64,000 bases of DNA from an uncultured delta proteobacterium (GTDB lineage: Bacteria > Myxococcota_A > Polyangia > Polyangiales > B10-G4), in the NCBI GenBank assembly GCA_963727445.1, contig CAVSGI010000009.1, positions 672,001-736,000 on the forward strand, written 5' to 3'. This document shows positions 2,878 to 58,378 of the stretch, one piece after another. A model generated the notes under the pieces. That model saw only the letters and a program-made list of their open reading frames with translations. It was not told the DNA's origin and ran no database searches. Position 1 is the stretch's first letter, and each line of letters starts with the position of its first letter. The position numbers and the translations under genes are program-made.

Positions 2878-3747
2878 TCAGTCCGTGATGATCAGCGAGT
2901 AGGTGTTGCGCGCGTCGTTGTAGCCGTAGACCTCGAGGGCGTAGTGGCCGTTGCGCGTGGCCGTGAAGTCGATGGTCTCGTCGTCGGTGACGCTCGCCGA
3001 GGTGTCGAGCACCCTGTCGTTGTCGATGTCGTGAAGACGCATGTCGAGGTCGCCGTCGGCGTGGGTGAAATGGATGGTGAGGACCAGGTGATCGCCCCCG
3101 TAGGCGAAGAACGGGTGGAAGTCCCGCTCGCCGGGACAGATCTCGAGGTTCTCGTAGTTCACGTTGAAGGAGATGAAGGGTGTGTCGGGGCCGTCGTTGG
3201 GCTCGAGGGCGTCCGGGCGACAGTCGCTGCAGGCGGCATCGGCGTCGTCGACCCGGCCGTTGCAGTCGTCGTCGATGCCGTTGCCGCAGATCTCACCGCC
3301 GGTGCACGCGTCGGGATCGTTGCCCCCGCAGAGCGCGGTGCCCGTCATGCGCGGCGCGGTGACGTCGTAGGTGAGTGTCACGGTGGCCGGGCGCTCGGAG
3401 AAGGAGCCGTCCTCGCTCTGCGACCAGAGGACGAAGGTATGAGGGCCGTCGCCTTCGAGCGAGACCTCGATACAGAAGGAGCCGTCGGGCAGAACGGTGT
3501 TCGCGACGCTCTCCCCTTCGAACTCGACGATCACCCGGCGTGCGTCACGCGCGACGCCGCGGATGGGGGCGAGGCGGTCTGGGATCGCCTCCGGCATGGG
3601 GTCGAGGCGCGGCGCGGGGGGAGGAAGGGGACCCATCGTCCCCGCATCGTCGCTCGTCATGTCCATCGGCCCGGGCTCACCGTCGACGTGGGGCGAGCAT
3701 CCCGCGACGAGCAGCAGCCCGATGGCGACGAGACCGCGCGCGTCCAT
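2878..3747 (-). CDS. Lipoprotein with Ig-like domain, putative metal-binding repeat and PPC-like C-terminal domain
   Basis: Start MDARG at 3747 overlaps the upstream stop (TGATG). Lipobox VAGC, EICGNGIDDDCNGRVDD motif, DALEPND...GDLDMRL PPC-like domain. Confidence 0.8.
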   Translation of the reverse strand: MDARGLVAIGLLLVAGCSPHVDGEPGPMDMTSDDAGTMGPLPPPAPRLDPMPEAIPDRLAPIRGVARDARRVIVEFEGESVANTVLPDGSFCIEVSLEGDGPHTFVLWSQSEDGSFSERPATVTLTYDVTAPRMTGTALCGGNDPDACTGGEICGNGIDDDCNGRVDDADAACSDCRPDALEPNDGPDTPFISFNVNYENLEICPGERDFHPFFAYGGDHLVLTIHFTHADGDLDMRLHDIDNDRVLDTSASVTDDETIDFTATRNGHYALEVYGYNDARNTYSLIITD

Positions 3748-5270: not shown

Positions 5271-5285
5271 CGCGCACGGACATGG

Positions 5286-5301
5286 AGCAACACTCGTGCC
5301 T
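5286..5301 (-). promoter_or_regulatory. Putative sigma54 (-24/-12) promoter
   Basis: Minus strand AGGCACGAGTGTTGCT: GG-N10-GC, close to the TGGCACG-N4-TTGC consensus, just upstream of ATG 5270. Confidence 0.7.
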
Positions 5302-5539
5302 CCCCGCGCGGCCGGGTTCTTTCCGACAAAAAGGCGGTCAATTGTTCGATCGAATACGCACCTCCCCGGCGCCCCCCGGGGCGGCTGCCCAGCGTTCGGC
5401 CACCGCTGTAGGGGCGATGCGGACACTGGTCCGCAGCGCAGGAGCCCTTTCCTGGGACGGCGCTCGGACGCCTCGACACCGCGCCGTGACAGGTCTATTA
5501 ACCCGCGTCCCGCGAGGGCGGGCTTGGAAGGCTTGGCTC

Positions 5540-6845: not shown

Positions 6846-8591
6846 GTGCGCGCGCTTCTCGTCGGTACTTCGCTGCTCATCGCTCTGAGCTCCTGTTCGG
6901 AGCCGGTGGATGCGGCGCTGCTTCATCTCGACGGGTTGGATGCGGAGCGACTGGAGCCCGGGGCGGTGGTGCGCGTCAGCGGGCGCGGCTTTCCGACGGG
7001 GCGGAGCGGGACGGTGCGCTTGTCCGGGACGGCGCATCGGCCGGGGGAGGCGCCGACCTCCGTCGCGGCGGTGGTGGAGGCGCGGGCCGACAACGAGAAC
7101 CGGCTGCACTTCGTCGTCGGCGAGCCGATGCTGGCGCGGCTCGGTGGCCACGGGACGGTGACGGGTGCGCTGCGGGTGGAGTTCCCGGGCGATGAAGGGG
7201 CGATCGTCTCGGGCGAGCTCCACGATCTGACCCTCGTCGTCCGTCCGGGCGGCTTCGGCGAGCTCTCGGGCGTGCTCAGCCGGGAGCGAAGCGGCGCCGC
7301 CCTCCTCGCTCATCTCGGCGTCACCCCTCAGGACGAGGTCGAAGAGCGCGGCGGCGTCGTGATCGAGACCTTCACCCCCGGCTCCCTCGCGGACCACGCC
7401 GGCGTGCGGAAGCGCGACCGCATCGTCGGCCTCGGCGCGATGGTCGTCGACGACATCGGCGATCTCGTTCCGCCGCCGCGGGCGCGCTCCATCGAGCTCA
7501 TCCTCGAGCGCCGCGGCCTCTCTCAACCGATCCACGTACCCGTCGCCCTCTCGCCCGCCGCCACCGGTCCCACCGCCCGCTCGTCGTGGGGCGCGAGCCT
7601 CGCCGTCGGCTTCGCTTTCGTCCTGCTCTTCCTCGTCTCCCCCGTCGCGCGCCTCACGACGCGCTTCTGGCGCGCGCTCCGCACCGCCGGTCCATCGATC
7701 GGCACCGCTCTGCTCGGCGTCAGCGCGTTGCCGCAGGAAGCGACGCTGCCGCGAAGGCTCGTGCGCTTCGCGTGGCTCCTCATCGCCTACCTCGCGCTGG
7801 TCGTCGCCTTCGGTGTGTTGCCCTTCACGGCGCGCGTCCTGCCGGGCTCCATCGACGCAGCCGTCCTCGCCACCGCCACCGTGGGTCTGGCCGTCGCGGT
7901 CACCGTCGCTTCTCTCTCCTCGAAGCATTCCCTCGCCGCACGCATCCGACAGATCCTCTGGACGTCGGCCGCCGCCCTGCCGGCCATCGTCGCGGTCGCG
8001 GCGGTCGCGCTTCCGGCAGGCTCCTTTCGCCTCGAGGCCATTTCCGCTGCCCAAGGCGGCGAGCCCTGGGCCTGGGCGGGATTCTCGTCGCTTCCGGCCT
8101 TCATCGGCCTGGTGGCCGGCTTCGTCTCGCTTGTGGTGGTCCCCTCGAACGTCGGGCCCGGCCCCGCACCTCAGGTGCTCGACCGGGTCCGCCTCTTCAT
8201 CGGCGCCAGTCTCTTCACCGTCGTCTTTCTCGGTGGCTTCTCACTCCCCTTCCACACCGGCGATCCCCTCCTCGCCGGCCCGGTCGTTCGGGTGTCGGCG
8301 GCGCTCTACTTCGTCCTCAAGACCCTCACCGTCGCGCTGGTCGGCTTCCGACTCTCTCGCTCGGAGGCGCGCCTCGGCGTGCTCGCGGCGACCAGCGGCC
8401 TGTCGGCGATCCTCGCGGCCGCCGCCGCGGCGTTCTTCATGATGAACCCCGCGCGCACGCCCCCCGCCACCATCGTCGGCCCGGTGGCCTTCGCTGCCGC
8501 CGCGATCGTCCTGCTCGTCGGCGCCCTCGCTTCACGCGAGCGACCTCCGGCGCAGCGCAGCGGAGCGCTGCTCCTCAGCCGATCGCGCTGA
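6846..8591 (+). CDS. Polytopic membrane protein with N-terminal lipoprotein signal, PDZ-like domain and NuoH-like TM region
   Basis: Lipobox LSSC, PDZ-like GGVVIETFTPGSLADHAGVRKRDRIVGL, about 9-10 TM helices including GSFRLEAISAAQGGEPWAW and FTVVFLGG, reminiscent of NuoH. Confidence 0.65.
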   Translation: MRALLVGTSLLIALSSCSEPVDAALLHLDGLDAERLEPGAVVRVSGRGFPTGRSGTVRLSGTAHRPGEAPTSVAAVVEARADNENRLHFVVGEPMLARLGGHGTVTGALRVEFPGDEGAIVSGELHDLTLVVRPGGFGELSGVLSRERSGAALLAHLGVTPQDEVEERGGVVIETFTPGSLADHAGVRKRDRIVGLGAMVVDDIGDLVPPPRARSIELILERRGLSQPIHVPVALSPAATGPTARSSWGASLAVGFAFVLLFLVSPVARLTTRFWRALRTAGPSIGTALLGVSALPQEATLPRRLVRFAWLLIAYLALVVAFGVLPFTARVLPGSIDAAVLATATVGLAVAVTVASLSSKHSLAARIRQILWTSAAALPAIVAVAAVALPAGSFRLEAISAAQGGEPWAWAGFSSLPAFIGLVAGFVSLVVVPSNVGPGPAPQVLDRVRLFIGASLFTVVFLGGFSLPFHTGDPLLAGPVVRVSAALYFVLKTLTVALVGFRLSRSEARLGVLAATSGLSAILAAAAAAFFMMNPARTPPATIVGPVAFAAAAIVLLVGALASRERPPAQRSGALLLSRSR

Positions 8592-43675: not shown

Positions 43676-44152
43676 TCAGAGTGCCGCGCCGTCGGAGAGC
43701 GACATGTCGTGGAAGCCTTCGCCCACCACCAGGTCCATCGCCGACACGACGTCCTCGTAACGCACCCCGTCCTCGGGGGCGACGATGATGTCGCGGCGGT
43801 TCGGCTCGATGCTGGCGCCGCTCCTGAAGCTTGGAGCGGAGCTCGTCGATGTCGAGGTCTCGCCGTTCTTGGCGATGGTGATGCGATCTCCGGCCGTCGC
43901 CGCGAGCACGTAGCCGGTGTTCTGGATCTGGAGGAACAGCTTGACCCGCTCCTCGGGCGGCGGCTGATCGTCCTGGGCCTGCTGACCGGGCTGCTGCTGG
44001 TTCGCGTTGATGCGCGCCAGCTGGTTCCACACCGCCGTGACGAGAAGGAACATGACGCAGCAGAGGAGGAGATCGATGAACGGGATGAGCGGGATCTCCG
44101 CGTCCACGTTCTTCTTTCCGCCACCACCGCCTTCGACGTTTACGCCACCCAT
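43676..44152 (-). CDS. ExbD/TolR family protein
   Basis: MGGVNVEGGGGGKKNVDAEIPLIPFIDLLLCC, PEDGVRYEDVVSAMD; probable compensating indels at about 43815-43860. Confidence 0.85.
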   Translation of the reverse strand: MGGVNVEGGGGGKKNVDAEIPLIPFIDLLLCCVMFLLVTAVWNQLARINANQQQPGQQAQDDQPPPEERVKLFLQIQNTGYVLAATAGDRITIAKNGETSTSTSSAPSFRSGASIEPNRRDIIVAPEDGVRYEDVVSAMDLVVGEGFHDMSLSDGAAL

Positions 44153-44210
44153 CGTTTGCTCCCTTATCGAAGAAACAGCTGGAGCCCCTCCGATGGAGGC
44201 GGTCAGGCGA

Positions 44211-44860
44211 TCAGCCTGCTGAGCGCCCTGAAGGTTGACCTTCGAGCGGTTGTTCACGACCAGGTTCATCACCTGGACCGTCGCGCCGTTGATGTCGTCG
44301 AGAAGGCACTGCGTCTTGCCGTTGAGCGACGGCGAAGCCGATCAGCGCGATGATCGCGCTCAAGAGGCCGAACGCCGTGCAGTTCATCGCCTCGGAGATA
44401 CCCTGCGGCGAGCAGCAGCGCCTTCGAGCCGCGTCCGCGTTGGCGACCGCGCCGAACGCGATGATGAGACCGATGACCGTGCCGAGCAGACCCGAGAGCA
44501 TCGCGAGGTTCGCGAGAAGGGCCAGGTACGGGGTGCGAGCTTCGATCTTCGGAAGCTCGCGAAGAGCGGCCTCGTCCATGGCAGCCTGAACCTCGGCGTC
44601 GGGGCGGTTGACCTTCATGAGGCCCGCCTTGACGATGCGGGCGAGAGGCGCGTTCGCCGCGGAGCAGAGCTTGATGGCGCGACCGATGTCTCCGGCGAGG
44701 ATGCACTTCTGCATCGTCGCGAGGAAGACGTCCTTGTTGATGGAGCTCTTGTACAGATAGATCGCGCGCTCGACGATGACGCCGATCGCGATGATCAGCC
44801 AGAAGAGGATGGCGTACATCCCCATCCGCCTTCCTCGAAGTGGTGCGCAATACTCGACAT
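44211..44860 (-). CDS. MotA/TolQ/ExbB proton-channel protein (frameshifted; 3' end approximate)
   Basis: AGGAGG RBS, MSSIAHHFEEG.WGMYAILFW, LANLAMLSGLLGTVIGLIIAF, GISEAMNCTAFGL. Confidence 0.85.
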
Positions 44861-44992
44861 CGTCCTCTGTCCTCCTGAAACGATCCTTGGGGCGCCGAAT
44901 CCCGTGCCGACGACCGCCTTCGATCAGCGTATCCCGTAGCGAATCTGATTGTGATTCTAAGGGTCTACGCCTTCTGCTCGCTTGACCGGGCG

Positions 44993-45020
44993 ATGATACC
45001 GACCCGAATGGTGAAGTCAA
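44993..45020 (-). promoter_or_regulatory. sigma70-type promoter of the leftward motor operon
   Basis: Minus strand TTGACT-N16-TATCAT. Confidence 0.6.
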
Positions 45021-45207
45021 TACTGATCCATTGGGCTCGGTGACACCCCCCACACGTCTCGGAAGGGTGATCCTTTAGTGTCCATCCGGCCAAGAAAGTT
45101 CCCACCGACATCGCCCTTCACCGGCCCCCTGGGGCCGCCCCGACGTCACCCCCGAAGACGGAGGGGGCTCGCGCTGTCACCCCTCGGGGAACGACCTGGA
45201 CGTAGCG

Positions 45208-45237
45208 TTGACAAGGCGAATCCCGCTAGGGTAGCGT
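45208..45237 (+). promoter_or_regulatory. sigma70-type promoter of the aglRQS-like operon
   Basis: TTGACA-N18-TAGCGT. Confidence 0.5.
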
Positions 45238-45327
45238 CCTGCCTGTTTTCGGCGATTGCCGCTGCATTTTCGCGGCATTCGGACCATCTGACGACCAGTA
45301 CCGAGAGGACGTAAGGAGCCTCAGCTG

Positions 45328-45954
45328 ATGGAAGCAATTTGGCATTTCATGCTCGATGGAGCCCCCTTCACCTTCATCAACGTCGGCGTGCTGGCGTTCG
45401 TGCTTGCGATCATCGTCGAACGATTCGTCTTCATTCTCACCAAGTACCGGGTCAACAGCCGTGAGTTCATGGCGCAGATCCGGAAGCTGGTGCAGGCGGG
45501 GAACATCGATCGCGCCATCAAGCTCTGCGAGGCGGCGCCGCTGCCGCTCCTTCAGGTCGTCAAGGCGGGCCTCACCCAGGTGAATCGTGGTGAAGAGGCG
45601 GTCATCGCTTCGATGGAAGAGCGCATGAGCGAGGTCATGCCCGAGCTCGAGAAGCGCATCGGCGCCCTTTGGTCGCTCGCGAACATCGCGACCCTGATCG
45701 GCCTCCTCGGCACCATCTCGGGTCTGATTCGCGCGTTCGGCGCCGTGGCCTTCGCCGACCCCTCCGAACAGCAGCGCATCCTCTCGAACGGTATCTCCGA
45801 GGCCATGTACAACACGGCGCTCGGTCTCGGCATCGCCGTGCTCTGCATGATCGCCACCTGATCCTCCACGGCATGGCAGAAGAAGCAGAAGCAGGACATG
45901 GAGCGCGCCACGATGAAGCTCGAGAACCTGCTCGCCCTGCGCCGTCAGGGCTGA
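45328..45954 (+). CDS. aglR: TolQ/ExbB-family gliding motor subunit, AglR-like; 1-nt frameshift near 45855
   Basis: IRKLVQAGNIDRAIKLC, LWSLANIATLIGLLGTISGLIRAF, GISEAMYNTALGLGIA; the shifted frame continues LILHGMA...KLENLLALRRQG. Confidence 0.8.
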
Positions 45955-45981
45955 GCCCGCATCACGCGTTATCGGTAGACG

Positions 45982-46538
45982 ATGGCCGAAGCTCACCCCA
46001 GCCCAGCGTCAATACATTCGGAAGCGCACGAAGGTTCACGACCTCGATCCGTCCGAGATGGCCGGCGAGCTCAACATCGTTCCGTTCCTCGACATCGTCG
46101 TGAACCTGATCATGTTCCTGCTCGTCACCACCATGAGCGCGGTGGCCGCTTGCGCAGATCGATTCTCAGCTCCCGGAGTATCGGCGCGGCGTCGGTGGAC
46201 GCAGCTCGAACCCCGAGGCGACGCTGAACCTCAACGTCACGATCGTCGAGCAGGGCGTCATCGTCACCGGCTCGGGCGGCAAGCTCGCACCGGGCTGCGA
46301 CACCGTCGGCTCGGGCAACGTCATCACGGTGCCGAAGAACGGCAACGACTATGATTGGGCGGGCCTGACCGCGTGCGTCGCGAAGGTGAAGGAGCAGTTC
46401 CCGGAGGAGCGACAGGTCACGGTCACCGCCGACCCGCTCATCCAGTACCGCTACCTCGTGCAGGCGATGGACGCGATTCGTGAGAAAGACACCGAGGAGC
46501 TCTTCCCCGAGGTGCTGATCTCCGCGGGTGTGCGCTGA
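45982..46538 (+). CDS. aglQ: TolR/ExbD-family motor subunit, AglQ-like (frameshifted)
   Basis: GELNIVPFLDIVVNLIMFLL, FPEERQVTVTAD, LVQAMDAIRE, LFPEV; indels near 45990, 46150 and 46200. Confidence 0.75.
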
Positions 46539-47113
46539 TGGCCGGCCCGGATACACAAGGCGGACACGACGAGCCCGTCGCCACGATGGGGCAGGTGAAG
46601 TCCATCATTCGGCGCAAGCTCCGCAAGATGGACCCCGACCAGGAGAACCATCTCAACATCTATCCGATGATGGACATGATGACGATCCTGCTCGTCTTCC
46701 TCATCATGCAATTCGCTGCGACCAGCGCGGACACGGTGCAGTCGGACGAGCTGCGCCTGCCCTACTCGACCTCGGAGACCGAGAAGCTCGACGCCCTGGT
46801 GGTGAAGATCTCGCGGATCTCGATCCTGGTCGAGGCGAATCAGGTCGTCACCCTTCGTAACGGGCAGGTCGACCCCGGCGACAAGCAGGGTGGCGGTACC
46901 GGCTTCCTGATCACGCGCCTGCATCGCGAGCTCCAGCAGCACCGCGATCGCCTCAAGATGATCGCTCAGCAGCGCGGCCAGCCGTTCCGCGGCGAGGTCC
47001 AGATCATCGCGGACGAACGAACCCCGTTCCGAACCCTGACCGAGGTCATCTATACGCTCGGTCAGAGTGAGTTCAAGAACCTCAGGTTCGTCGTACTCCA
47101 AGAAGGTAGTTAG
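46538..47113 (+). CDS. aglS: TolR/ExbD-family motor subunit, AglS-like
   Basis: LNIYPMMDMMTILLVFL, IIADERTPFRTLTEVIYTLGQSEFKNLRFVV. Confidence 0.8.
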   Translation: MAGPDTQGGHDEPVATMGQVKSIIRRKLRKMDPDQENHLNIYPMMDMMTILLVFLIMQFAATSADTVQSDELRLPYSTSETEKLDALVVKISRISILVEANQVVTLRNGQVDPGDKQGGGTGFLITRLHRELQQHRDRLKMIAQQRGQPFRGEVQIIADERTPFRTLTEVIYTLGQSEFKNLRFVVLQEGS

Positions 47114-47178
47114 TCGGCGCGCCATTCGCCGGCTTCGCCACCAATGACCGGAGAAATTGGTGAGGAGGGCTCAGGCCC

Positions 47179-47208
47179 CCTTGGCCTTGGCCTTGGCCTT
47201 GGCCTTGG
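47179..47208. repeat. (CCTTGG)5 microsatellite between convergent genes
   Basis: Direct reading of the sequence. Confidence 0.9.
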
Positions 47209-47270
47209 GCTGGCGGAGGGCGGCTGAACGTACTCCCTGCGTGAGACGACCAGTGGGAGGGTGTTCGACG

Positions 47271-48656
47271 CTACCGGCAGCGGCCGCGTTGGCAGCGTTG
47301 ACCGGCAGCGCACATGGTGTCGCAGGCGCCGCAGTGGGCCGTGTCGGTGTCGAGGTCGACGCACTCGGTGCCGCACGTGGTGGCGGGGCAGTCGCAGAGG
47401 CCGGCGACGCAGGTGGCGAGGGGGCCACAGTCGTTGCCGCAGCCGCCGCAGTTTGCGCCGTCGGTCATCGGGTCGACGCAGGTGTCGCCGCAGAGGAGCT
47501 GTCCCATCGGGCACTCGCAGGCGCCCGAGGTGCACACCCGACCACCCGCGCAGGCCATCGTGCAGCCGCCGCAGTTGGCGTCGTCGGTCATCGGGTCGAC
47601 GCAGGTGCCGGCGCAGAGCAAGAGACCCGCCGCGCATGTGGGTACGCAAGCGCCGCCATCGCAGGTCTCTGCTGCCGCGCAGGCGTTGCGGCAGGCGCCG
47701 CAGTTCGCGGGATCGGTCGCCGCGTCGGTGCAGCGCCCGCGGCAGAGCGTCTCGCCGCTCGGGCAACGGCAGACGCCGTCCTGGCAGGTGCGCCCGCCAG
47801 CGCACACCACGCCGCAGTCGCCGCAGTGTGAGTTGCTCGTCGCAGTGTCGACGCAGCTCGCGCCGCAGGCCGTGAGCCCTGCCGGACATGCGGGCTGACA
47901 GGTTCCGTCCGCGCAGAGCTCTCCCGAGGCGCACGCCACACCGCATCCACCACAGTTCGCGGCGTCTGTGCTGGTGTCGACGCATCCACTCGCGCCGCAC
48001 GGCGAAAGCGTGCCCGGACAGACGCACGCGCCATCAGAGCAGTACCGCCCGCTCGCGCACGCCATCGAGCAGCCGCCGCAGTGGTAGGGGTTGTTCGAGA
48101 CGTCGACGCAGGCGCCCTCGCACTCGGTGAGGGTCATGCCGCAGCTCGAGGCGCACAGCCCCGCCGTGCAGACCTCGCCCGCGGGGCAGGCCATGGCACA
48201 CGCGCCGCAGTTGGCCGGATCGGAGCGGAGATCCACGCAGCCGCTGCCACAGTCGCTGAGGTCCGTGTCGCAGATGCAGATTCCGTCGGAGCAGGTCTGG
48301 TTGGTGGCGCAGGCCACTCTGCAGGCGCCGCAATTCTCCGGATCGCTGTCGGGGTTGACGCACGCGTCGCCACAGTCGGTCAGCCGCGGAGAGCAGGCCG
48401 AGGCGCACACACCGAGATCGCAGACCTGGCCGTCGGCGCAGGCGGTGCCGCAGGCGCCACAGTTGGCCGGGTCGGTGGAGAGCGTCGTGCAGACTCCGTC
48501 GCAGCGCGTCTGGCCCGCGGTTGGACAGGCACCGCCATCCGCCACCGTCGAATCCATCGTGGGGCCCACGCCGCTGTCGGTAGTGGCGGACCCATCGTCG
48601 CCGCATCCGAAGAGTGCCAGCGCCGAGACCCAGGCGACGAGGATGCGAAAAGCCAC
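47271..48656 (-). CDS. Cys-rich lipoprotein with 10 STIG1-like repeats
   Basis: GTG start at 48656 (VAFRILVAWVSALALFGC, lipobox LFGC); ten DPxNCGxC-type repeats. Confidence 0.88.
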   Translation of the reverse strand: MAFRILVAWVSALALFGCGDDGSATTDSGVGPTMDSTVADGGACPTAGQTRCDGVCTTLSTDPANCGACGTACADGQVCDLGVCASACSPRLTDCGDACVNPDSDPENCGACRVACATNQTCSDGICICDTDLSDCGSGCVDLRSDPANCGACAMACPAGEVCTAGLCASSCGMTLTECEGACVDVSNNPYHCGGCSMACASGRYCSDGACVCPGTLSPCGASGCVDTSTDAANCGGCGVACASGELCADGTCQPACPAGLTACGASCVDTATSNSHCGDCGVVCAGGRTCQDGVCRCPSGETLCRGRCTDAATDPANCGACRNACAAAETCDGGACVPTCAAGLLLCAGTCVDPMTDDANCGGCTMACAGGRVCTSGACECPMGQLLCGDTCVDPMTDGANCGGCGNDCGPLATCVAGLCDCPATTCGTECVDLDTDTAHCGACDTMCAAGQRCQRGRCR

Positions 48657-48680
48657 GGACCCGATGTTAGCAGACGCACG

Positions 48681-48717
48681 AAGGCCCCACCGTCTCGCGA
48701 CGGCGGGGCCTTTCTTC
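48681..48717. terminator. Hairpin (probable terminator) downstream of the knottin-repeat gene
   Basis: AAGGCCCCaCCGTC-tcgc-GACGGcGGGGCCTT, then TCTTC. Confidence 0.65.
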
Positions 48718-48735
48718 GTGGCGATCGCGCGCGAC

Positions 48736-49536
48736 TCAGGCGCGGGCCGGAGCGCACTGGTCCGAGCTGTTGCAGTAGCCGCTGCAGCAGTCGCTGCCGG
48801 CGCCGCAGGAGGCGCCGGTGTCGCCGCAGGCCGGAGCGCGGGCCGGTGCACACTCGTTCGAGCTGTTGCAGTAGCCGCTGCAGCAGTCGCTGCCGGCGCC
48901 GCAGGAGGCGCCGGTGTCGCCGCAGGCCGAGGCGCGGGCCGGTGCACACTCGTTCGAGCTGTTGCAGTAGCCGCTGCAGCAGTCGCTGCCGGCGCGGCAC
49001 GATGCGCCGGTGTCGCCGCAGGCCGAGGCGCGGGCCGGTGCACACTCGTTCGAGCTGTTGCAGTAGCCGCTGCAGCAGTCGCTGCCGGCGCTGCACGATG
49101 CGCCAGTGTCGCCGCAGAGCGCGGCGCGGGCCGGGGCGCAGACGTTCGAGCTGTTGCAGTTTCCGCTGCAGCAGTCGTCGTTCGCGGCGCAGGCGCTGCT
49201 ATCTGCGAAGCACGCGGGAAGTGCCCGGGACGGAGCGCAGGCATTCGAGCTGTTGCAATAGCCGGAACAACAGTCCTCGTCGATGCTACAGACCGTGCCG
49301 TCCGCCTCACACATGGGGTCGGGCATGGCCGCGTCGTCTCCCGGAAGCGTGGTGCCACCGTCCGCGGTGCCCATCATCATGGGATCGGGCGTGGTGCTGG
49401 CGTCGTCGCCCATGGTGCCCGCGTCGTCGTAGAGCGGGTCGCCACCCGTGCTCCCCGTTGGACGCGTGTCGTTGCCACACCCGAGCCCACCGATCACCAG
49501 AAGCGCAGCCAAACAAATCCCGAAGTTCCGTCCCAT
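48736..49536 (-). CDS. Lipoprotein with six tandem knottin/conotoxin-like modules
   Basis: GGGAG RBS, lipobox GLGC, six C-x6-C-x5-CC-x3-C-x5-C modules; the last four form near-identical 96-bp DNA repeats. Confidence 0.88.
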   Translation of the reverse strand: MGRNFGICLAALLVIGGLGCGNDTRPTGSTGGDPLYDDAGTMGDDASTTPDPMMMGTADGGTTLPGDDAAMPDPMCEADGTVCSIDEDCCSGYCNSSNACAPSRALPACFADSSACAANDDCCSGNCNSSNVCAPARAALCGDTGASCSAGSDCCSGYCNSSNECAPARASACGDTGASCRAGSDCCSGYCNSSNECAPARASACGDTGASCGAGSDCCSGYCNSSNECAPARAPACGDTGASCGAGSDCCSGYCNSSDQCAPARA

Positions 49537-49580
49537 CGTCATTTCTCCCTTCGCCGTGTGGCGTGATGACAGGGAGCTTC

Positions 49581-49597
49581 AGCACGGCCCGTGCCGA
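49581..49597 (-). promoter_or_regulatory. Putative sigma54 promoter for the knottin-repeat gene
   Basis: Minus strand TCGGCACGGGCCGTGCT, GG-N10-GC. Confidence 0.65.
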
Positions 49598-49632
49598 AGC
49601 GCCGAGGACCCAGAAACACCGAAAAAACCGGC

Positions 49633-49689
49633 GTGGACCGCGCAGTTCACCCTGGACCAGGGCGGTCCAGCGCTGGACCATTGGTCCAC
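49633..49689. promoter_or_regulatory. Three phased TGGAC...GTCCA inverted repeats (putative enhancer)
   Basis: TGGAC at 49634, 49653, 49674; GTYCA at 49645, 49665, 49684 (about 20-bp period). Confidence 0.6.
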
Positions 49690-49695
49690 GCCCGC

Positions 49696-52600
49696 ATGCG
49701 AATCGAAGTCGAGAGGCCGTCGCCATCCTCCGCGCGCACCTTCGGCCCCTACCGAGTGATCGCGCCCCTCGGTCGCGGGGGCATGGCGACCATCTATCGC
49801 GCGGTGCACGTCGAGAGCACAGAGCAGGTCGCCGTCAAGACCGTGAGCGCGGCCAACGAGAAGGTGGTGCAGAGCATTCGCCGTGAGGTGCGCGCGCTCT
49901 CGCGGATCCGTCATCCGGGTATCGTTCGGATCGTCGCCGATGGGGTGGAGGACGGCCTGCCCTGGTATGCGATGGAGCTCATCGAGGGCACGACCCTCGC
50001 TCAGCTCGCGCAGAAGCCCCGCTCTTCGACTGGTGATCTGGGCTCCGCGGAGGACGCGGATGGGGGCGGAGCGGATGTCGCTGGCAAGCGCCTGGAGTTC
50101 GAGGCGCTGATCACCCTCGCCCGCGCGATCTGTCCGGGGCTCGCCTACCTGCATGGCGAAGGGCTCGTTCATCGCGACCTCAAGCCCGACAACATCGTGC
50201 TTCGCGACGACGACAGCCCGGTGCTCGTCGACTTTGGTCTGGCCAGCGTCTCGCGGCGCACGAGTCGTGAAGCCCTCGAGGTGCGCCCGGACCTGTCGGG
50301 AACCGCCGCCTACGTGTCGCCCGAGGCGATCCGGGGAGACGCGGTGGACGCCCGCTCCGACCTCTACGCCCTCGGCTGCATCCTCTACGAGATGGCCACC
50401 GGCCGGACGCCCTTCGCCGCCTTCACCAAGTCGGCGGTGCTTCGCGGCCATCTCGAGTCCACCCCGACCCCGCCCTCCAGCCTGGCGGCCGGGCTCCCGC
50501 CCGCATTCGACGCCCTGGTCCTCGCCCTGCTCGAAAAGGAGCCGCGTCATCGGCTCGGTCACGCCGACGACGTCGCGCGCGCCCTGGGCGAGATGGGGGC
50601 CCGGCCGCTCCGACGTGCTCTTCCCACCTCGCGCGCCTACCTCTATCGGCCGGGCTTCGTGGGACGCCGGCCGCAGGTGGAGCGCATCGAGGCCGCGCTC
50701 GGACGCGCGCGCGCCTCCGCTGGATCGCTCCTGCTGGTCGGCGGGGAGAGCGGCATCGGCAAGACGCGGCTCGTCAACGAGATGGGGCTGCGCGCGGCGC
50801 GGAGCGGCTTCCGCGTCTACTCCGGCGAGTGTCGCGCAGAGGGGGGCGGCGCCCTCGGCGCATTTCAAAAACCGCTCGCGCAGCTCGCGGATCGGTGCCG
50901 CGCCGGAGGGGAGGCGCTCACCGCACAGCTCTTCGGTGAGGGCGCCAAGATCCTCGCGCCCTACGAGCCGACCCTCGCGGCTCTGCCGGGGGTGGAGGCG
51001 ATGCCGGATCCGCCGCCGCTACCCACAGCCGATGCGAAGCTGCGCGTGTTCCGGGCCATGAGCGAGGTCCTGACGCGGCTCGCTGAGGACGCGCCCCTGC
51101 TCTTGATCCTCGACGATCTCCAATACGCCGACCGCCTCAGCCTCGACCTGCTCGCATTTCTCGCGCGACAAGTCGGGACCAGCCCCATCCTGTTGATGGC
51201 GACCTACCGGACCGAGGAAGCGCACGCCGCTCTCGAGTCGCTTCTTCGAAGCACCGATACCGCACATCTGTTGCTCGAACGCCTCGACGACGACGATGTC
51301 GCGGCGATGGTGAGCGACATGCTCGCCGACGAGGGGCCGGCCCACCTCGGCGCGTATGTGGCGAAGCACGCCGAGGGCAATCCCTTCTTCGTCGCCGAGT
51401 ACCTGCGCGCCGCTCTCGAAGCCGAGCTGCTATCCCGCGATGCGTCCGGGAGCTGGAAGCTGCGCGAGTCGGTGGCCGACGCGCCCGAGCTCGAGCTGCC
51501 CCTGCCGAAGGTGCTCCGGGAGCTGGTGCATCGCCGATTGGAGAACCTCTCCGCCGACGCCGGCGCGCTTCTCTCCGCCGGTGCGGTCATCGGCCGGGTG
51601 GTCGACGTGGAGCTGCTCCTCCGCGTCAGCACCCGCGACGAGAGCCGGGCCTTCGACGCCATCGAGGAGCTCGTGCGCCGGCAGGTCCTCGAGGACGCGG
51701 GGCCAGGGCGGGTGCGCTTCACCCACGACAAGCTCCGCGAGGTCGCCTACGGGGCGATTGATGAGGCGGAGCTCCCCGACCTCCACCGCCGGGTCGCGGA
51801 GCTCCTCGAAGGGGAGGGTTCGGCCGATGGGCCCATCCCCTACGCCGCCATCGCCCACCACTACACACGGGCGGGGCTGCCGAAGCGCGCCGTCGAAGCG
51901 CTGCATCACGGAAGCGCCGAGGCGTTGAGCCGCAGCGCGTACGGCGCGGCCGCAGAAGGCTACGAGCAGCTGCTGTCGGTGGGCGACTTCTCCGACATGC
52001 GGCGGACCGAGTGGGAGCACGGCCTGGGCGAGGCCCTGCTCGGCCTCGGCGACGTGCAGCGCGGCAAGGAGCGCCTGGTGCGCTCCCTCGAGCTCGATGG
52101 GCTGCCGGTGGCCGACGACAAACCGCGCATCGCGGCTGGGCTCGCGGCACAGTTGAGTCGGCAGATGGGCCACCGCCTGTTGCCCCAGACGATGATCGAG
52201 CGACCGGGTGAGCGCGCCCAGCTCCTGCGCACCACGCGGACCTATCAGCGCCTGGTGGAGACCCACTGGTTCGAGAACGACGTCGGGCGGATGGTCTTCT
52301 CCGCGCTTCACGCGCTCAACTTCGCCGAGCGCGCCGGCCCCTCCATCGAGCTCGCCCGCTGCTACGCGATCGTGGGCCTCGCCGCCGGAAGCATCCCCGT
52401 GCACCGCGTCGCCGAACACTACGCGCGCCTCGCCTCTTCGACCGCGTCCGCGGTGGGAGATCCCGCGACCGAGGCCTATGTGCTCTTCATCAGCAGCGTC
52501 TACAGGCTCGGCACCGGCGCCTTCACGCGCGTCGAGACCGACCTCGGGCGCGCCGCCGATTCTCAGCCTGCGCATCACCGACCCCCGCTACCACGGCGAG

Positions 52601-53251
52601 AGCCTCACGGTGCTCGGGCTGTCGGCGCTCTACCGGAACGACCTCGACCGCGCCGACGAGCTCTTTCGCTCGGTGGGGGACTCGGGACGTCGATACGACA
52701 ACCAGCAGCATCGCGTGTGGGCCGCCGTCGGGCGCTCGGTGGTGCTCTACCGGCGCGGACAGTACGCGGACGCGGAGACGCTCCTTCGCCAGGCCGAGGA
52801 GCTGCTCTCGGTGTCGGGGCCACCCCTCGAGTGGCTACGTCTTCACGGCCTCAGGGCCAGCATCCTCCTCGAAGCGGGCGACGTCGCCGGCGCCGAGCTC
52901 TCGGCCGCGCGCGCCGAGACGTTGATGGCGAACATGTCGGTGCCCACGTCTCATTACCTGCTCGAAGGCTTCGCCGGCATCGCCAACGTGCGACTCGCGC
53001 TCTTCGAGCCGGTTCGGCGCCTGTCGGTGGCGCGCGCGAAGCGCGCCGTCGGCTCGCTGACGCGATACGCCTCCCTCTTCGCCATCGGTCGTCCCCGCGC
53101 CTTCGCCGCGCGGGCGGGCCTCGACCTCCTCGAGGGCCGAAAGTGGCGCGCGCGACGGGGCTTCGCCCGGGCGGAGGAGGAGGCGCGGCGGCTGGGGATG
53201 CTCCACGAGATCGACCACGCGCGCGCGCTCGCGAACCGCCTCGGGCTCTGA
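49696..53251 (+). CDS. Ser/Thr kinase + AAA (STAND-type) ATPase + TPR-like helical region; frameshift near 52560
   Basis: GRGGMA, HRDLKPDN, DFG, Walker A GGESGIGKT, Walker B LILDDLQ, EGNPFF, RFTHDKLRE; continues in ORF 52208-53251. Confidence 0.9.
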
Positions 53252-53273
53252 CTCACCCGGGCGCCGCTCGTGT

Positions 53274-54671
53274 ATGATGCGGGCGGTGACGGAGACCCTC
53301 AGCTCCAGCAGTGGCAAAGTGACCCTCGAAGGGGATCGGGCCGTGCTCCGCGGTGGGCAGCTGGTCCTCGCGATGAACCTCGCGCGCCCCACCGATCGAC
53401 CCGCCGGGTTCGCCCTCGCCTTCGTCCGGCACGTCTTCGTCGGACGCGGTGAGGAGCGGAGCTGCGAGCGCGACAGCAAGGGCAAAGCGACCACCCTCAA
53501 CATCCGTGTCCCGGACAACTTCATGTCGGGCGCCCACTTCCATCTGGAGCACGTGGCCGGCACATGGGTCGCGGAGGACGCCGGGTCCAAGAACGGAACC
53601 AAGCTCAACGGCGCACCGCTCAAGCGCGCCAACCTCGAGGACGGCGACATCCTGGTGAGCGGCAAGACCGTCTTCCTCTTTCGCGCCGACGTCCCGGTCT
53701 TCGAGGACGAGCCCGACCTGGATCTCTCCGGCACCAAGGTGGAGGACGCCGCGACCACCACCCTGCACACGCGCTTCGCGAGCGAGCTCGGGCGCCTGTC
53801 GCGCGTGGCCCCCTCGCAGATCCCGATCCTGGTGCACGGCGAGACGGGGACCGGCAAGGAGCTGGTGGCTCAAGCCATCCACCGGATGACCGGACGCAGC
53901 GGACCCTTCGTGGCCGTCAACTGCGGGGCCCTGCCTCCCACGCTCATCAGCAGCGAGCTCTTCGGCGCCAAGAAGGGTGCGTACTCCGGGGCGACCGAAA
54001 ATCGCGCCGGCCTGGTGCGGAGCGCCGACGGTGGCACGCTCTTTCTCGACGAGATCGCCGAGCTTCCCCTCGAGGCACAGGCCGCCTTCCTCCGCGTTCT
54101 GCAGGAGAGCGAGGTCATGCCGGTGGGCGGCGACAAGCCGGTGCCGGTGGACATCAAGCTGGTGGCCGCGACTCACCGCGACCTGCCCGAGCTCGTCGAG
54201 GAGGGCAGCTTCCGGGAGGACCTCTACGGCCGCGTCGCCGGCTACGAAGTGCATCTGCCCCCGCTGCGCGAGCGGCGCGAGGATCTGGGCCTGTTGGTGG
54301 GCAACATCCTCGAACGCAAAGGGCTCACTCAGACGACGCTCACGGAAGAGGCGGCGATGCTCCTCTTCGAGTACGCGTGGCCGCGCAACGTGCGCGAGCT
54401 CGAGCACGCGCTGATGAGCGCTGCGGTGGTGGCAGGCGAGGAGGCGATCGACGTGGCGCACCTGCCGGCCAGTGTCCGCGAGCCCGAGAGGACGAGCTCC
54501 CGCCCTCCGTCGGTCTCTCCCTCGGAGCCCGATTTCGTCGCGCTCATGAAGAAGCACGACGGCAACGTCAGCCAGGTGGCGCGCGAGCTCGGCACCTCGC
54601 GCTCGCAGGTCCGTCGTCTCGCGAAGCGCTACGAGCTGGACCTCGACCAGCTGCGTCGAACCACCGATTAG
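53274..54671 (+). CDS. FHA-domain sigma54-dependent transcriptional activator (start possibly GTG 53286)
   Basis: FHA (VGRG, MSGAH, GSKNGT), GETGTGKE, ELFG..KGAYSGA, LFLDEI, FREDLYGR, WPRNVREL, Fis-type HTH. Confidence 0.95.
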   Translation: MMRAVTETLSSSSGKVTLEGDRAVLRGGQLVLAMNLARPTDRPAGFALAFVRHVFVGRGEERSCERDSKGKATTLNIRVPDNFMSGAHFHLEHVAGTWVAEDAGSKNGTKLNGAPLKRANLEDGDILVSGKTVFLFRADVPVFEDEPDLDLSGTKVEDAATTTLHTRFASELGRLSRVAPSQIPILVHGETGTGKELVAQAIHRMTGRSGPFVAVNCGALPPTLISSELFGAKKGAYSGATENRAGLVRSADGGTLFLDEIAELPLEAQAAFLRVLQESEVMPVGGDKPVPVDIKLVAATHRDLPELVEEGSFREDLYGRVAGYEVHLPPLRERREDLGLLVGNILERKGLTQTTLTEEAAMLLFEYAWPRNVRELEHALMSAAVVAGEEAIDVAHLPASVREPERTSSRPPSVSPSEPDFVALMKKHDGNVSQVARELGTSRSQVRRLAKRYELDLDQLRRTTD

Positions 54672-55831: not shown

Positions 55832-56956
55832 TCAGGCCGCAATCTCGGCCGCGATCCGCCGCGCTTCGATCCCGATCTCGCGCAGCATACCGGTGGGCGC
55901 GACGTAGAAGCCGCAGAAGTAGAGCCCCGGGGCGGCTGCGCAGCCGCTCTTCTTCGGGTTCCCGCGCTCGTCACAGACCTGGTCTTCGCCCGCGAGCATG
56001 TCGGTGATCTTCGGCTGGTAGCCGGTCGCGAGCACCACCGCGGCGAACTCGTCTGTCACGCCGTCGACGAAACGTACGCCGTTCTCGGTGAAAGACTCGA
56101 TCCCCTGGCGCACGGTGATGTGACCTTCGCGGATGAGTGCGATGGTGCCGATGTCGAGGAGGGGGATGCGGCCGTCGCGGCGGATCTGGGTGTTCGGGCC
56201 GTAGGGGAGCTTCCTCAAGCCCAGCTTCTCGATGTCGCCGACGAACGCTCGTACCAGCGGTTTCGAAAGGAAGTCCGCGACGCGCATGGGTAGGACGCTC
56301 ATCGCGATGCCGACGCCGAGCACGGGCACGCCGAAGAAATCCCGCGGCACCACGTTCACCCGGCTCCGTACCGAGATCGTGGGGCGCGCGCCGTGTTCGT
56401 GGAGATCGATCGCGATCTCACCACCCGAGTTGCCGAAGCCCACCACCAGCACTCGCTCGCCGCGCCACCGCTCACCGTCCGCGTATTTCGAGCTGTGAAC
56501 GATCTCGCCGCGAAAGCTCTCCATCTTCGGCCAGCTCGGCACGTGGGGGACGCGGGTGTAGCCGGTGGCGAAGACGACGTTCGTCGCTGCAAAGGAGCCC
56601 TGGGACGTCTCCACCTCGAAGCCATCGCCGTCGCGCCGCACCGAGGTGACCTCGTGCCCGAAGCGCGGCGCGAGGCCCTGCACCCGCGCGTACCGCTCGA
56701 GGTACGCGACCACCTGCTCCCGCGGCGGATAGCGCGGCGCGTCAGCTGGCCAGGGCATGAAGGGAAGCGCCGACAGGCCCTTGGTGGTGTGCAGGTGCAG
56801 ACGTCGGTAGTGATGCCGCCACGCGGTTCCGACGACCTCCGTCTTCTCGAGCAGTACGTGCTCGACGCCTTCGTGCTTCAGGCAAGCCGAGGTCGCGAGA
56901 CCCGCGGCGCTCGCCCCGATCACGACGGTGTTCGTTCGCTCCACTTCATCCAGCAT
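55832..56956 (-). CDS. Flavin-containing monooxygenase (class B, YUCCA-like)
   Basis: GASAAG, WRHHY..LHLHT, FATGY, FRGEIVHSSKY, GFGNSG, LATGY. Confidence 0.92.
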   Translation of the reverse strand: MLDEVERTNTVVIGASAAGLATSACLKHEGVEHVLLEKTEVVGTAWRHHYRRLHLHTTKGLSALPFMPWPADAPRYPPREQVVAYLERYARVQGLAPRFGHEVTSVRRDGDGFEVETSQGSFAATNVVFATGYTRVPHVPSWPKMESFRGEIVHSSKYADGERWRGERVLVVGFGNSGGEIAIDLHEHGARPTISVRSRVNVVPRDFFGVPVLGVGIAMSVLPMRVADFLSKPLVRAFVGDIEKLGLRKLPYGPNTQIRRDGRIPLLDIGTIALIREGHITVRQGIESFTENGVRFVDGVTDEFAAVVLATGYQPKITDMLAGEDQVCDERGNPKKSGCAAAPGLYFCGFYVAPTGMLREIGIEARRIAAEIAA

Positions 56957-57001
56957 CTCAGGTCCCTTTCAGAGATGTAATGGGCGTGCAGCGATCCGCT
57001 G

Positions 57002-58378
57002 GTGATGTTGCTCTCCATGCAGAGTTGCGCCCGCGCTCGATTCGCCCGTGTCGGGGCGGTCTTCGCGTCCGTCGCCACCCTCACGCTGGTGGGTTGCGGG
57101 ACCGCCATGGGCGACCGCCCGGCCCATGAACCGAGCCGCAGCGAAGCCGCGCAGGACGAGATCGAAGTGCTGCGCGCGGCCGCGCGGCCGATCGAATCGC
57201 CGGACGACCTCGGACAGGTGATCGCGTGGGTCGGCGACGCGCCCTTCGTGCTGATCGGCGAGGCCTCGCACGGCACCGAGGAGTTCTATCGCTTGCGTGC
57301 CGAGCTCACCAAGCGCCTCATCTTCGAGAGCGGCCTCGACGCCGTGTTGATCGAAGGTGACTGGTCGAGCGTGGCCCGCGTGGATCGTTACGTCCGCGGG
57401 CTCTCCGGGGATCTGAGCGCGCATCACTCGCTCGCCGAGTTTCGGCGTTTCCCGCTCTGGATGTGGCGCAACGAGGCGGTGGTCGACTTCATCGAGTGGC
57501 TGCGCCAGTACAACGAAGGACTCCCGGCCGAGCAGAGGGTCGGCTTCTACGGACTCGATCTCTACAGCCCCCAGCAGTCCGCTGCCGCGCTGTTCCGGTC
57601 GCTCCCCCCGGACGCCGCCGCCCGCGCCCGCGCGCGCCTCGACTGCTTCGTCGGCCCTGGTGTGTCTCCGGGCGGACACGTTCGCGAAAACGAGCGCGAG
57701 GGCAAGATGGAGGCCTGTTCCCGCGACCTCGCCGCTGAGGTGACCGAGCTCGAGCGCTCCGGTGCGACCCTCGACCAGGTCGAGAACGCCCGCGTCGTGC
57801 GCGACGCCGCACGCTACCGCACCGTCGAGGGCGAGCCGTCGTGGAACGTCCGCGACCGCCACATGGCCGAGGCCGTCGACGCCATCCGCGCGCACTACGC
57901 GGCCTCGCGCGGCACGCCCCGCCTCGCGATATGGGCGCACAACTCGCACCTGGGCGACGCGCGCGCCACCGACGCGAGCCTCCGCGGTCAGGTGAACCTC
58001 GGCCAGCTCCTGAAAGAACACTACGGCGACAAGCAGGTCTTCAACATCGGCTTCAGCACTTACACCGGCGAGGTGACCGCGGCGTCGGAGTGGTACGAGC
58101 CCGCGCACAAGAAGCAAGTGAACCCAGGTCGTGACGACAGCTACGAGGGCGTCCTCCACGACGTCGGCGGCGGCACCTACGCCCTCGACCTCCGGGACCC
58201 TGCCGTGGCTCGGGCCCTCGAAGAGCCGCGCCTCGCGCGCGCGATCGGCGTCGTCTACCGGCCCGACACCGAGCGCCAGAGTCACTACTTCTCCTCCGAG
58301 CTCCCGGCGCAGTTCGACGCGGTGATCCACGTCGACACCACCACCGCGCTCGAACCGCTCGACGGGTGGCAGGAGTAG
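57002..58378 (+). CDS. Erythromycin esterase family lipoprotein
   Basis: Lipobox LVGC, IGEASHGTEEFY, EGDW, FPLWMWRN, WNVRDRHM, WAHNSHLGDARAT, RAIGVVY. Confidence 0.93.
   Translation: MMLLSMQSCARARFARVGAVFASVATLTLVGCGTAMGDRPAHEPSRSEAAQDEIEVLRAAARPIESPDDLGQVIAWVGDAPFVLIGEASHGTEEFYRLRAELTKRLIFESGLDAVLIEGDWSSVARVDRYVRGLSGDLSAHHSLAEFRRFPLWMWRNEAVVDFIEWLRQYNEGLPAEQRVGFYGLDLYSPQQSAAALFRSLPPDAAARARARLDCFVGPGVSPGGHVRENEREGKMEACSRDLAAEVTELERSGATLDQVENARVVRDAARYRTVEGEPSWNVRDRHMAEAVDAIRAHYAASRGTPRLAIWAHNSHLGDARATDASLRGQVNLGQLLKEHYGDKQVFNIGFSTYTGEVTAASEWYEPAHKKQVNPGRDDSYEGVLHDVGGGTYALDLRDPAVARALEEPRLARAIGVVYRPDTERQSHYFSSELPAQFDAVIHVDTTTALEPLDGWQE

Follow-up and report, generated by a model that had tools for sequence, protein, structure and literature searches.

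A putative kinase, FHA activator and DNA array module controlling cell-surface lipoprotein genes in an uncultured member of the Polyangiales

A divergent locus and the question it raises

A stretch of 64,000 nucleotides from the genome of an uncultured delta proteobacterium of the order Polyangiales (G000:C9:672001-736000, hereafter the window, whose numbering is used for coordinates given without a contig) contains a locus in which a gene for a Ser/Thr kinase and a gene for an FHA-domain sigma-54 activator are read away from two genes for cysteine-rich predicted lipoproteins. The arrangement raises the question of whether the kinase and the activator control the cysteine-rich genes and, if so, through which DNA sites. 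The assembly of the source genome (G000) comprises 9.47 Mb in 27 contigs and is 85.6% complete. Translations and Pfam and NCBIfam domains placed the four genes of the divergent locus at the coordinates claimed in the original prediction. The two rightward genes, on the plus strand, encode a kinase with predicted STAND-type NTPase and TPR-like regions (49696-53251) and the activator (53274-54671; 465 amino acids), which starts 22 bp past the kinase stop codon. They are separated by a 153-bp spacer (49543-49695) from the two leftward genes, on the minus strand, which encode a knottin-repeat lipoprotein of 268 amino acids (48736-49542) and an MXAN_6577-like, Stig1-repeat cysteine-rich predicted lipoprotein of 458 amino acids (47271-48647, with a GTG start at 48647). 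Comparative analysis of these sequences suggests that the kinase, the FHA activator and a DNA array in the spacer probably form a three-part regulatory module that switches on cell-surface lipoprotein genes.

A sigma-54-type promoter and an upstream array in the spacer

The GG-N10-GC sigma-54-type promoter that had been claimed upstream of the knottin-repeat gene is present on the minus strand (49581-49596), with GGCACG as the -24 element and TGCT as the -12 element. The minus-strand 16-mer from 49596 to 49581 (cGGCACGggccgTGCT) agrees with the sigma-54 consensus at 10 of its 12 specified positions; this score is a crude count over those positions. Sites with a score of at least 10 numbered 545 in the 9.47 Mb when both strands were counted, so about 0.004 would be expected on the relevant strand of the 153-bp spacer. 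Transcription is predicted to start near 49570, leaving a leader of about 28 nucleotides with a Shine-Dalgarno-like GGGAG before the ATG at 49542. The pattern GGCACG-N5-TGCT occurred twice in the window against 0.21 expected, and the second match (5286-5300, minus strand) lies apparently inside an open frame on the same strand (3747-5537).

The promoter sits in a palindrome with 12-bp arms, as had also been noted; most of this palindrome results from the near reverse complementarity of its -24 and -12 blocks. Its predicted fold had a z value of -1.46, and 14 of 200 shuffles folded as well. In a three-way alignment with orthologous loci the -24 and -12 blocks were invariant while the palindrome was not kept. 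The suggestion that the element could be a hairpin instead of a promoter is disfavored by this pattern of conservation and by the unexceptional fold.

Upstream of the promoter is a putative activating array (49634-49688, both strands) of six TGGWCCA units about 10 bp apart. The array contains the three inverted repeats that had been described (TGGACC-N4-AGTTCA, TGGACC-N5-GGTCCA and TGGACC-N3-GGTCCA), with centers about 20 bp apart; two are perfect and the N4 repeat carries one mismatch (GTTCA). Each half-site is better read, from its sequence, as a 7-bp palindromic unit, TGGWCCA. The pattern TGGACC-N3-5-GGTCCA occurred twice in the window and 0.00 times in 100 shuffles, and TGGACC-N1-9-GGTCCA occurred six times in the whole genome, two of them at this locus. 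An A6/T6 tract (49622-49627) lies between the array and the promoter, where the original prediction had placed it, and may act as a bendable spacer; the spacers between array and promoter at orthologous loci were also A/T-richer. The array ends 8 bp before the ATG of the kinase gene here and 37 bp before it in a related genome, G238. An extra GGTCCT half-unit was seen 9-10 nucleotides upstream of the -24 element in the window (49605-49610) and in a second related genome, G272 (L064, about 7790-7800), and was absent in G238.

Conservation of the regulator with its putative sites

An order-wide search with the window activator as query matched 36 of 401 genomes at E <= 1e-105, with no match in the same-genus genome G001. 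Identity above 50% was reached in only three of the 400 other genomes (G190, G238 and G272). The results included rows from the unpublished genomes G396 and G313, on which none of the specific claims made here depends. With the G238 orthologue as query, 2 of the 88 genomes of family f9 matched at E <= 1e-125, one of them G238 itself. The kinase-activator pair was found at five further loci, those of G272, G238 and G190 and the metagenome loci L198 and L200. The identities to the window proteins were 48.5% (kinase) and 51.9-53% (activator) in G272, 47.4% and 54.5-56% in G238, and 48.5% and 52.3% at L198, which holds the full pair; the G190 activator was 59-60% identical and its kinase is cut by the contig end, while the L200 contig (activator, 54.4% identity) is too short for the kinase, and the short flank suggests the pairing there. 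In G190, G238 and G272 a kinase-AAA_16-TPR gene precedes the activator, with 47-60% identity across the parts present. The predicted synteny of kinase and activator was borne out, since gene order and close spacing were kept at all four further loci that show both genes directly.

Conservation of the cis-elements was compared at the three loci with both flanks, those of the window, G238 and G272. Each had four to five exact TGGACC/GGTCCA hexamers, and a sigma-54-like site of matching orientation follows 38, 67 and 57 bp downstream of them, respectively, with scores of 10, 10 and 11 of 12. Each site points at a gene with a lipoprotein signal. The conservation of the repeats that had been anticipated was thus observed at three of three loci. 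The arrangement in G238 is divergent as in the window. That of G272 differs, its array and promoter following the activator gene at a great distance from the kinase start, which suggests that the cis-elements travelled with the regulator through a rearrangement. The genes apparently driven in G238 and G272 encode lipoproteins with EGF-like cysteine modules and LamG/concanavalin-like domains that are related to each other (26.8% identity, 1e-13), and pairwise comparison detected no similarity between these proteins and the knottin-repeat or Stig1-like proteins. A conserved linkage of the module to knottin or other cysteine-rich genes of the window's type, which the original prediction had envisaged, found no support.

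No other array of at least three hexamers was present in 1.08 Mb of loci, and no array of at least two hexamers with a sigma-54-like site was present in a set of 14 loci that included those of paralogous FHA activators at 45-50% identity. The helix LGTSRSQVRRLA of the activator's helix-turn-helix (HTH) domain is common to the orthologous activators, whereas the paralogues at 45-50% identity have a different helix and loci without arrays. A genome-wide search of G000 returned no second protein with this helix. A scan of genome contigs with the activator gave 31 loci, the best at 47% identity, with no orthologue among them, and the best two (L084 and L085) had no array. A metagenome scan with an alignment of the HTH domain found the LGTSRSQ helix at 5 of 79 loci; no array was present on these five contigs, which are too short or are cut before the flank upstream of the kinase. 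A convergent gene and no array were found in the downstream flank of the G190 activator.

Several observations were made beside this comparison. The missing flank of the G190 locus may be represented by contig C155 of that genome, which has a GGTCCA pair at its start, and no sigma-54-like site was scored there. An unrelated metagenome locus, L254, had a three-hexamer array without a sigma-54-like site. Locus L026 (G005:C175:4000-15876) shows a related theme in the absence of a TGGACC array: an FHA activator that is not an orthologue (42% identity) precedes an AAA_16 STAND gene, and a Stig1-like cysteine-rich gene lies on the opposite strand about 1.8 kb upstream. Near paralogous FHA activators (L022, L023, L024, L027, L141 and L143) a Ser/Thr kinase gene was often found, no more than a few hundred bases away, which suggests that the pairing of kinase and FHA activator may be general in the order, against a high background of kinase genes.

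A candidate regulon in the source genome

For a scan of G000, an array was defined as at least three hexamers with gaps of at most 40 bp. Eleven arrays were found, five of which had a sigma-54-like site with a score of at least 10 within 200 bp, in the order array, promoter, gene. As a control, 101 hexamers of equal composition gave 5459 arrays, 56 of them with such a site; arrays were therefore enriched about 40-fold beside sigma-54-like sites, and this co-occurrence points to a small regulon. Binding of the array by the activator and activation of the knottin promoter, as originally proposed, are supported by the three of three orthologous loci and by this enrichment, and we regard the predicted link from activator to promoter as well supported by these comparisons.

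The four additional candidate sites precede genes for a 324-amino acid protein with an AgmX/PglI C-terminal domain below cut-off at 25.5 bits (C9:257238), a 475-amino acid lipoprotein without a family (C9:299622), a 133-amino acid tail-anchored protein (C20:839738) and a WcaJ-type undecaprenyl-phosphate glucose phosphotransferase (519 bits; C8:461413), an enzyme of exopolysaccharide priming. Their arrays lie at C9:257303-257336, C9:299689-299721, C20:839783-839806 and C8:461249-461276, respectively. In G272 a second array with a sigma-54-like site was found before another lipoprotein gene. Two other hexamer clusters had no sigma-54-like site nearby: a group of four at G000:C8:31408-31477 (L149; none within 200 bp), which may be due to chance or represent another type of site, and a tandem 15-bp repeat at G272:C10:2170-2235 (L171), with five copies that each contain GGTCCA.

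The activator and the kinase

The activator has the domains of an FHA-type enhancer-binding protein. The Sigma54_activat family (PF00158) matched at 3.3e-60 and 203 bits, with the Walker A motif GETGTGKE and the DE of Walker B, and it is followed by an AAA lid. The N-terminal FHA domain (PF00498) scored 38.1 bits against a cut-off of 20.7, and the pocket residues expected for phospho-Thr binding (G57, R58, S85, H88, S105, N107 and G108) were invariant in all eight aligned proteins. The C-terminal HTH domain (HTH_8, 25.2 bits against a cut-off of 22) contains the helix LGTSRSQVRRLA, and an rpoN gene product was detected in G000 at 225.9 bits. The protein combines an HTH domain with putative cognate sites beside a -24/-12 promoter in a genome with rpoN, as expected of an enhancer-binding protein whose DNA binding is predicted from sequence. 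FHA activators are abundant in this genome, with 18 matches to the activator in G000 at E <= 1e-60.

The N-terminal tail of the activator, VTETLS (from 53274 to 53300), is conserved as V-T-[ER]-T-L-[ST] at the extreme N-terminus of five of six orthologous activators (L064, L065, L198 and L200 were among those compared). Tails of a similar Thr-Leu-Ser type are also found in many paralogues of the activator from related genomes. The tail is a good candidate for a phospho-acceptor that the FHA domain would bind.

The kinase gene product contains a Pkinase domain (PF00069, 3.1e-42, 145 bits) with the VAVK, HRDLKPDN and DFG motifs of a Hanks-type Ser/Thr kinase, followed by an AAA_16 NTPase domain (9.9e-26, 91.7 bits against a cut-off of 32.6) with Walker A and B motifs. 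The NACHT and nSTAND1 families were below threshold. The C-terminal part matched TPR_MalT at 34.5 bits (cut-off 45), and TPR_2 was also below threshold. Signalling from this kinase to the FHA domain of the activator is plausible, as suggested by the conserved adjacency of the genes, the intact phospho-Thr-binding residues and the conserved N-terminal Thr motif.

The kinase gene has a frameshift that the original prediction did not mention, a single extra base at 52560 (TT in place of T). As a result, the open reading frame from 49696 continues after about residue 955 into an Arg/Pro/Ala-rich, out-of-frame text that replaces the last 230 or so residues, and the genuine TPR end lies in the +1 frame (52565-53251). 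The C-terminal part in the +1 frame has gene-like codon bias and is similar to its orthologues along the full length. Orthologous kinases were in a single frame in four of four cases, those of G272, G238, G190 (partial) and metagenome locus L198. Contigs from two metagenome runs, one of a wetland and one of a salt marsh, represent relatives about 93-96% alike and have one base fewer at 52560, which restores the frame; these were Logan contigs of DNA runs, one contig at depth 2 per run, with small shares (0.05). No RNA run was listed for 49300-53300. Since the metagenome relatives and the orthologues are in frame, the break at 52560 is probably an assembly error or a very recent mutation, and it is no argument against the module even though the kinase is formally broken in this record.

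The cysteine-rich products

The 268-amino acid product has a putative signal peptide with a predicted lipidated cysteine, Cys23, in a lipobox read by eye (VIGGLGC followed by GND). A low-complexity linker, acidic and rich in Gly, Thr and Pro, precedes six tandem modules of about 32 amino acids with the pattern C-x6-C-x5-CC-x3-C-x6-C. The six cysteines of each module, in C-C-CC-C-C order within about 30 residues, occupied invariant columns in an alignment of 26 sequences. No Pfam family above cut-off and no NCBIfam family matched the protein, the Pfam Conotoxin family being below threshold (21.4 bits against 25.1). An AlphaFold2 model made from the 26-sequence alignment had pLDDT values of 66-93 in the repeats, mostly 80-93, and below 50 in the linker. 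In a Foldseek comparison of the model with the PDB, none of 25 rows reached E <= 0.001 and all E-values exceeded 0.8; a lack of matches at this level is expected because the units have just 30 residues. About 20 of the 25 rows are entries that we take to be inhibitor cystine knot (ICK) peptides, including nemertide alpha-1, atracotoxins, conotoxins and squash trypsin inhibitors; the best ICK-type row was nemertide alpha-1 (target TM 0.80, rmsd 0.7 over 27 columns). We consider knottin-like a fair description of the modules, the knot itself being putative. The search for relatives of the protein gave 26 metagenome proteins without names, of which the best was 39% identical across 57% of the query, and the nearest clusters in the Protein Atlas were unnamed Myxococcota proteins (0.84 and 0.82), which serve as leads only. 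A search for paralogues in G000 gave no more than weak matches (E >= 3.5e-6).

The 458-amino acid product has a putative lipobox, also read by eye (LFGC, in ALALFGC followed by GDD) and is a member of the MXAN_6577-like family NF041328 (7.1e-143, 470.3 bits against a cut-off of 100), with 10 stretches of the Pfam Stig1 family (1.2e-51, 173.6 bits against 24.1). Its gene is separated from the knottin-repeat gene by an 88-bp gap without a sigma-54-like site of score 9 or more. The gap contains a GC-rich hairpin (48683-48710, minus strand), read from the sequence, with a 12-bp stem that includes one G.U pair and a 4-nucleotide loop. A terminator scan flags the stem on the plus strand, and the hairpin is a possible partial terminator or RNA stabilizer.

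Both products look membrane-anchored and the other candidate targets are of envelope type, so a role at the surface or in the envelope (adhesion, matrix or recognition) is favored, and release as free antimicrobial peptides appears less likely from these sequences. The output of the module is best read as a predicted cell-envelope and cell-surface regulon and not as a set of secreted toxins.

Neighboring genes

To the left of the cysteine-rich genes (43676-47113) is a cluster of genes on both strands, two MotA/ExbB-like and three ExbD-like, for which no link to the module was found. To the right of the activator are a gene for a 335-amino acid protein without known function and, at 55832-58378, a divergent pair consisting of an FMO-like flavin monooxygenase gene (minus strand) and an erythromycin-esterase-family gene (plus strand, 358 bits). 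These are not obviously linked to the module.

Proposed mechanism and alternative explanations

The sensor of the proposed module would be the cytoplasmic Hanks-type kinase, fused to an AAA_16/STAND NTPase and TPR region and presumably co-transcribed with the activator. As in STAND proteins, binding of a cytoplasmic ligand or protein to the TPR/STAND part would turn the kinase on. The kinase may then phosphorylate a Thr in the V-T-[ER]-T-L-[ST] tail of the activator, or a Thr of the kinase itself, and the FHA domain would capture the phospho-Thr in cis or in trans and so gate assembly of the AAA+ hexamer. The activator HTH domain is predicted to bind TGGWCCA arrays 38-137 bp upstream of sigma-54 promoters. 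Since the sites are about 20 bp apart, the array may present three dimer sites on one helix face, which would supply one hexamer. The hexamer would loop over the A-tract spacer to the -24/-12 promoter and turn on the knottin-repeat lipoprotein gene, and read-through of the hairpin at 48683-48710 would probably turn on the MXAN_6577-like lipoprotein gene too. Autoregulation of the kinase-activator operon is likely here and in G238 because the array abuts the kinase ATG.

A number of observations weigh against this scheme. The L1 loop of the activator is GAYSGA here and in G272, and GAFSGA in the six other aligned relatives, in place of the canonical GAFTGA; since this conservative replacement of Thr by Ser is shared by the whole clade, the GAYSGA loop is probably functional. 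In this assembly the kinase gene carries a frameshift. Few genomes of the order have the module, and its distribution is patchy; conservation of the cis-elements could be compared at three loci, two of them from one family, and orthologous modules do not drive a conserved set of genes. The units differ between loci in spacing and orientation: neighboring ones are about 10 bp apart in the window, 9 bp apart in G272 and 12-13 bp apart in G238, and the spacers of the inverted repeats are 3, 5 and 4-6 bases here. The four extra promoters in G000 need not all be real, since two would leave a leader of about 5 nucleotides. For the paralogues, adjacency alone is weak evidence of a functional pair because Ser/Thr kinase genes are so abundant in these genomes.

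Other explanations have also been weighed. The activator might control the promoter without taking its input from the neighboring kinase, its FHA domain reading the product of another kinase or the two genes merely sharing an operon. Such an arrangement would fit genomes with very many Ser/Thr kinases and FHA activators, and a kinase that is frameshifted here, but we think it unlikely, because kinase-activator order and spacing are kept at the four further loci with both genes (G272, G238, G190 and L198, from two families), the pairing persists despite the rearranged target side, and kinase and activator have diverged to a similar degree (about 47-60% identity). Equally unlikely in our estimation is a decaying circuit, in which the kinase would be a true pseudogene that has lost the TPR sensor, with the activator locked either off or on. 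The single extra T, with the Arg/Pro/Ala-rich text that takes the place of the last 230 or so residues, is what such decay would look like; against this, the displaced reading frame retains its codon bias and its full-length similarity to orthologues, the close relatives in the two metagenomes lack the extra base, and an assembly of 27 contigs and 9.5 Mb may well carry indel errors. That the array is the operator of the kinase operon alone, bound by another repressor or used by the activator for its own regulation, with the sigma-54-like site due to chance or to a hairpin, would account for the 8 bp between the array and the kinase ATG, for the palindrome around the promoter and for the sigma-70 promoter scan of 47000-50000, which returned 0 sites and so detected no sigma-70-like promoter for either transcription unit. 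We consider this explanation highly improbable, given that the G272 array and site are downstream of the activator and far from the kinase start, that the array-site co-occurrence far exceeds that of the control hexamers and that the -24/-12 blocks are conserved while the palindrome, unexceptional in its fold, is not.

Other alternatives concern the output. The STAND kinase could be an NLR-like danger sensor that induces knottin peptides as antimicrobial, anti-predator or competition effectors, in line with the innate-immunity or predation reading of the original prediction. The STAND-type NTPase and TPR architecture, the six predicted ICK-like modules with venom and inhibitor knottins among the top Foldseek rows and the patchy, accessory-like distribution of the module all agree with such a role. 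Both products carry predicted lipoprotein signals, however, and would be anchored rather than released as free peptides; the orthologous modules drive EGF/LamG lipoproteins unlike the knottin and Stig1-like proteins, the other candidate promoters in G000 precede envelope or exopolysaccharide genes, the Foldseek E-values were all high, and no defence-system family was found, no PADLOC scan having been made. We regard effector release as quite improbable. A variant in which an NLR-like receptor writes phospho-Thr on a foreign or damage cue, and the cell displays a coat of knottin and cysteine-rich lipoproteins for defense or offense, we regard as very improbable. If true, this arrangement would constitute a transcriptional pathway from a pattern receptor to a disulfide-rich effector, analogous to animal and plant innate immunity and carried on a patchily distributed, cargo-swapping module. 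The kinase-activator-array module acting on surface lipoprotein genes remains the explanation that we prefer.

Relation to known systems and significance

FHA-type sigma-54 activators are numerous in myxobacteria, and to our knowledge most of them have no assigned input kinase, DNA site or regulon. Jelsbak, Givskov and Kaiser reportedly described FHA-domain enhancer-binding proteins of Myxococcus xanthus in 2005. The activator studied here resembles these in its N-terminal FHA domain, sigma-54 AAA+ domain and HTH domain, in its myxobacterial origin and in having a proposed, largely unproven Ser/Thr kinase input. Its points of difference are the GAYSGA loop, a specific presumed partner kinase encoded in the same operon, and the availability of a DNA motif together with a candidate regulon; no developmental role is implied. 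The kinases of the enhancer-binding protein cascade are still described as expected rather than known in one recent paper (PMC11980068). Our literature search, of incomplete coverage, found no paper that assigns a kinase to an FHA activator or names the TGGWCCA motif.

The combination of kinase, AAA/MalT-like and TPR regions is the architecture of PknK-type kinases. The kinase described here has a like arrangement, in which an N-terminal Hanks kinase domain precedes a predicted STAND-type NTPase (AAA_16) and a TPR-like region; it is predicted to be cytoplasmic and, as proposed, would act on a transcription factor. The likeness is one of architecture, and the presumed partner is an FHA-sigma-54 activator and not an AraC-type regulator. 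PknK-family members are multidomain and one Myxococcota kinase family has a C-terminal TPR, according to a preprint on bacterial Ser/Thr kinases (10.1101/2025.01.12.632604).

In the spacer, the likeness is to other systems. NtrC and PspF are the paradigms of sigma-54 activation from upstream sites. As in those systems, inverted repeats of dimer size (hexamer-N3-5-hexamer) precede a -24/-12 promoter, from which a putative bendable spacer separates them, and as in pspF-pspA the start of a divergent gene of the regulatory pair overlaps the sites. The motif is TGGWCCA, however, and the three sites are about 20 bp apart and just 38 bp from the -24 element. The proposed input also differs, being the reading of a phospho-Thr and not phosphorylation of a receiver domain or binding of PspA.

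GarA and OdhI have an FHA domain and are controlled through a phospho-Thr tail at their own N-terminus. In Bdellovibrio DgcB the FHA domain is likewise reported to capture a phosphorylated N-terminal tail (PMC6733907). The window activator shares with these three proteins a short, conserved, Thr-containing tail before the FHA domain; its output would instead be a sigma-54 AAA+ ATPase, and phosphorylation of its tail is a proposal.

Among the products, the knottin-like modules share with ICK peptides the six-cysteine C-C-CC-C-C spacing and a predicted compact fold, but here six modules are in tandem on a lipoprotein anchor and belong to no curated family. The second leftward gene product is a bona fide member of the MXAN_6577-like/Stig1 repeat proteins (NF041328); a literature search on Stig1 and MXAN_6577 found nothing relevant.

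The tandem knottin-like modules on a bacterial lipoprotein represent a protein type without a curated family. The module offers a compact test case for FHA activators, with one kinase, one activator, a 7-bp DNA unit and five candidate promoters in one genome. In its orthologues the regulator appears to have kept its cis-elements through rearrangement and to have exchanged its cargo. Should the input step be confirmed, the module would link STAND-type sensing to sigma-54 transcription through Ser/Thr phosphorylation.

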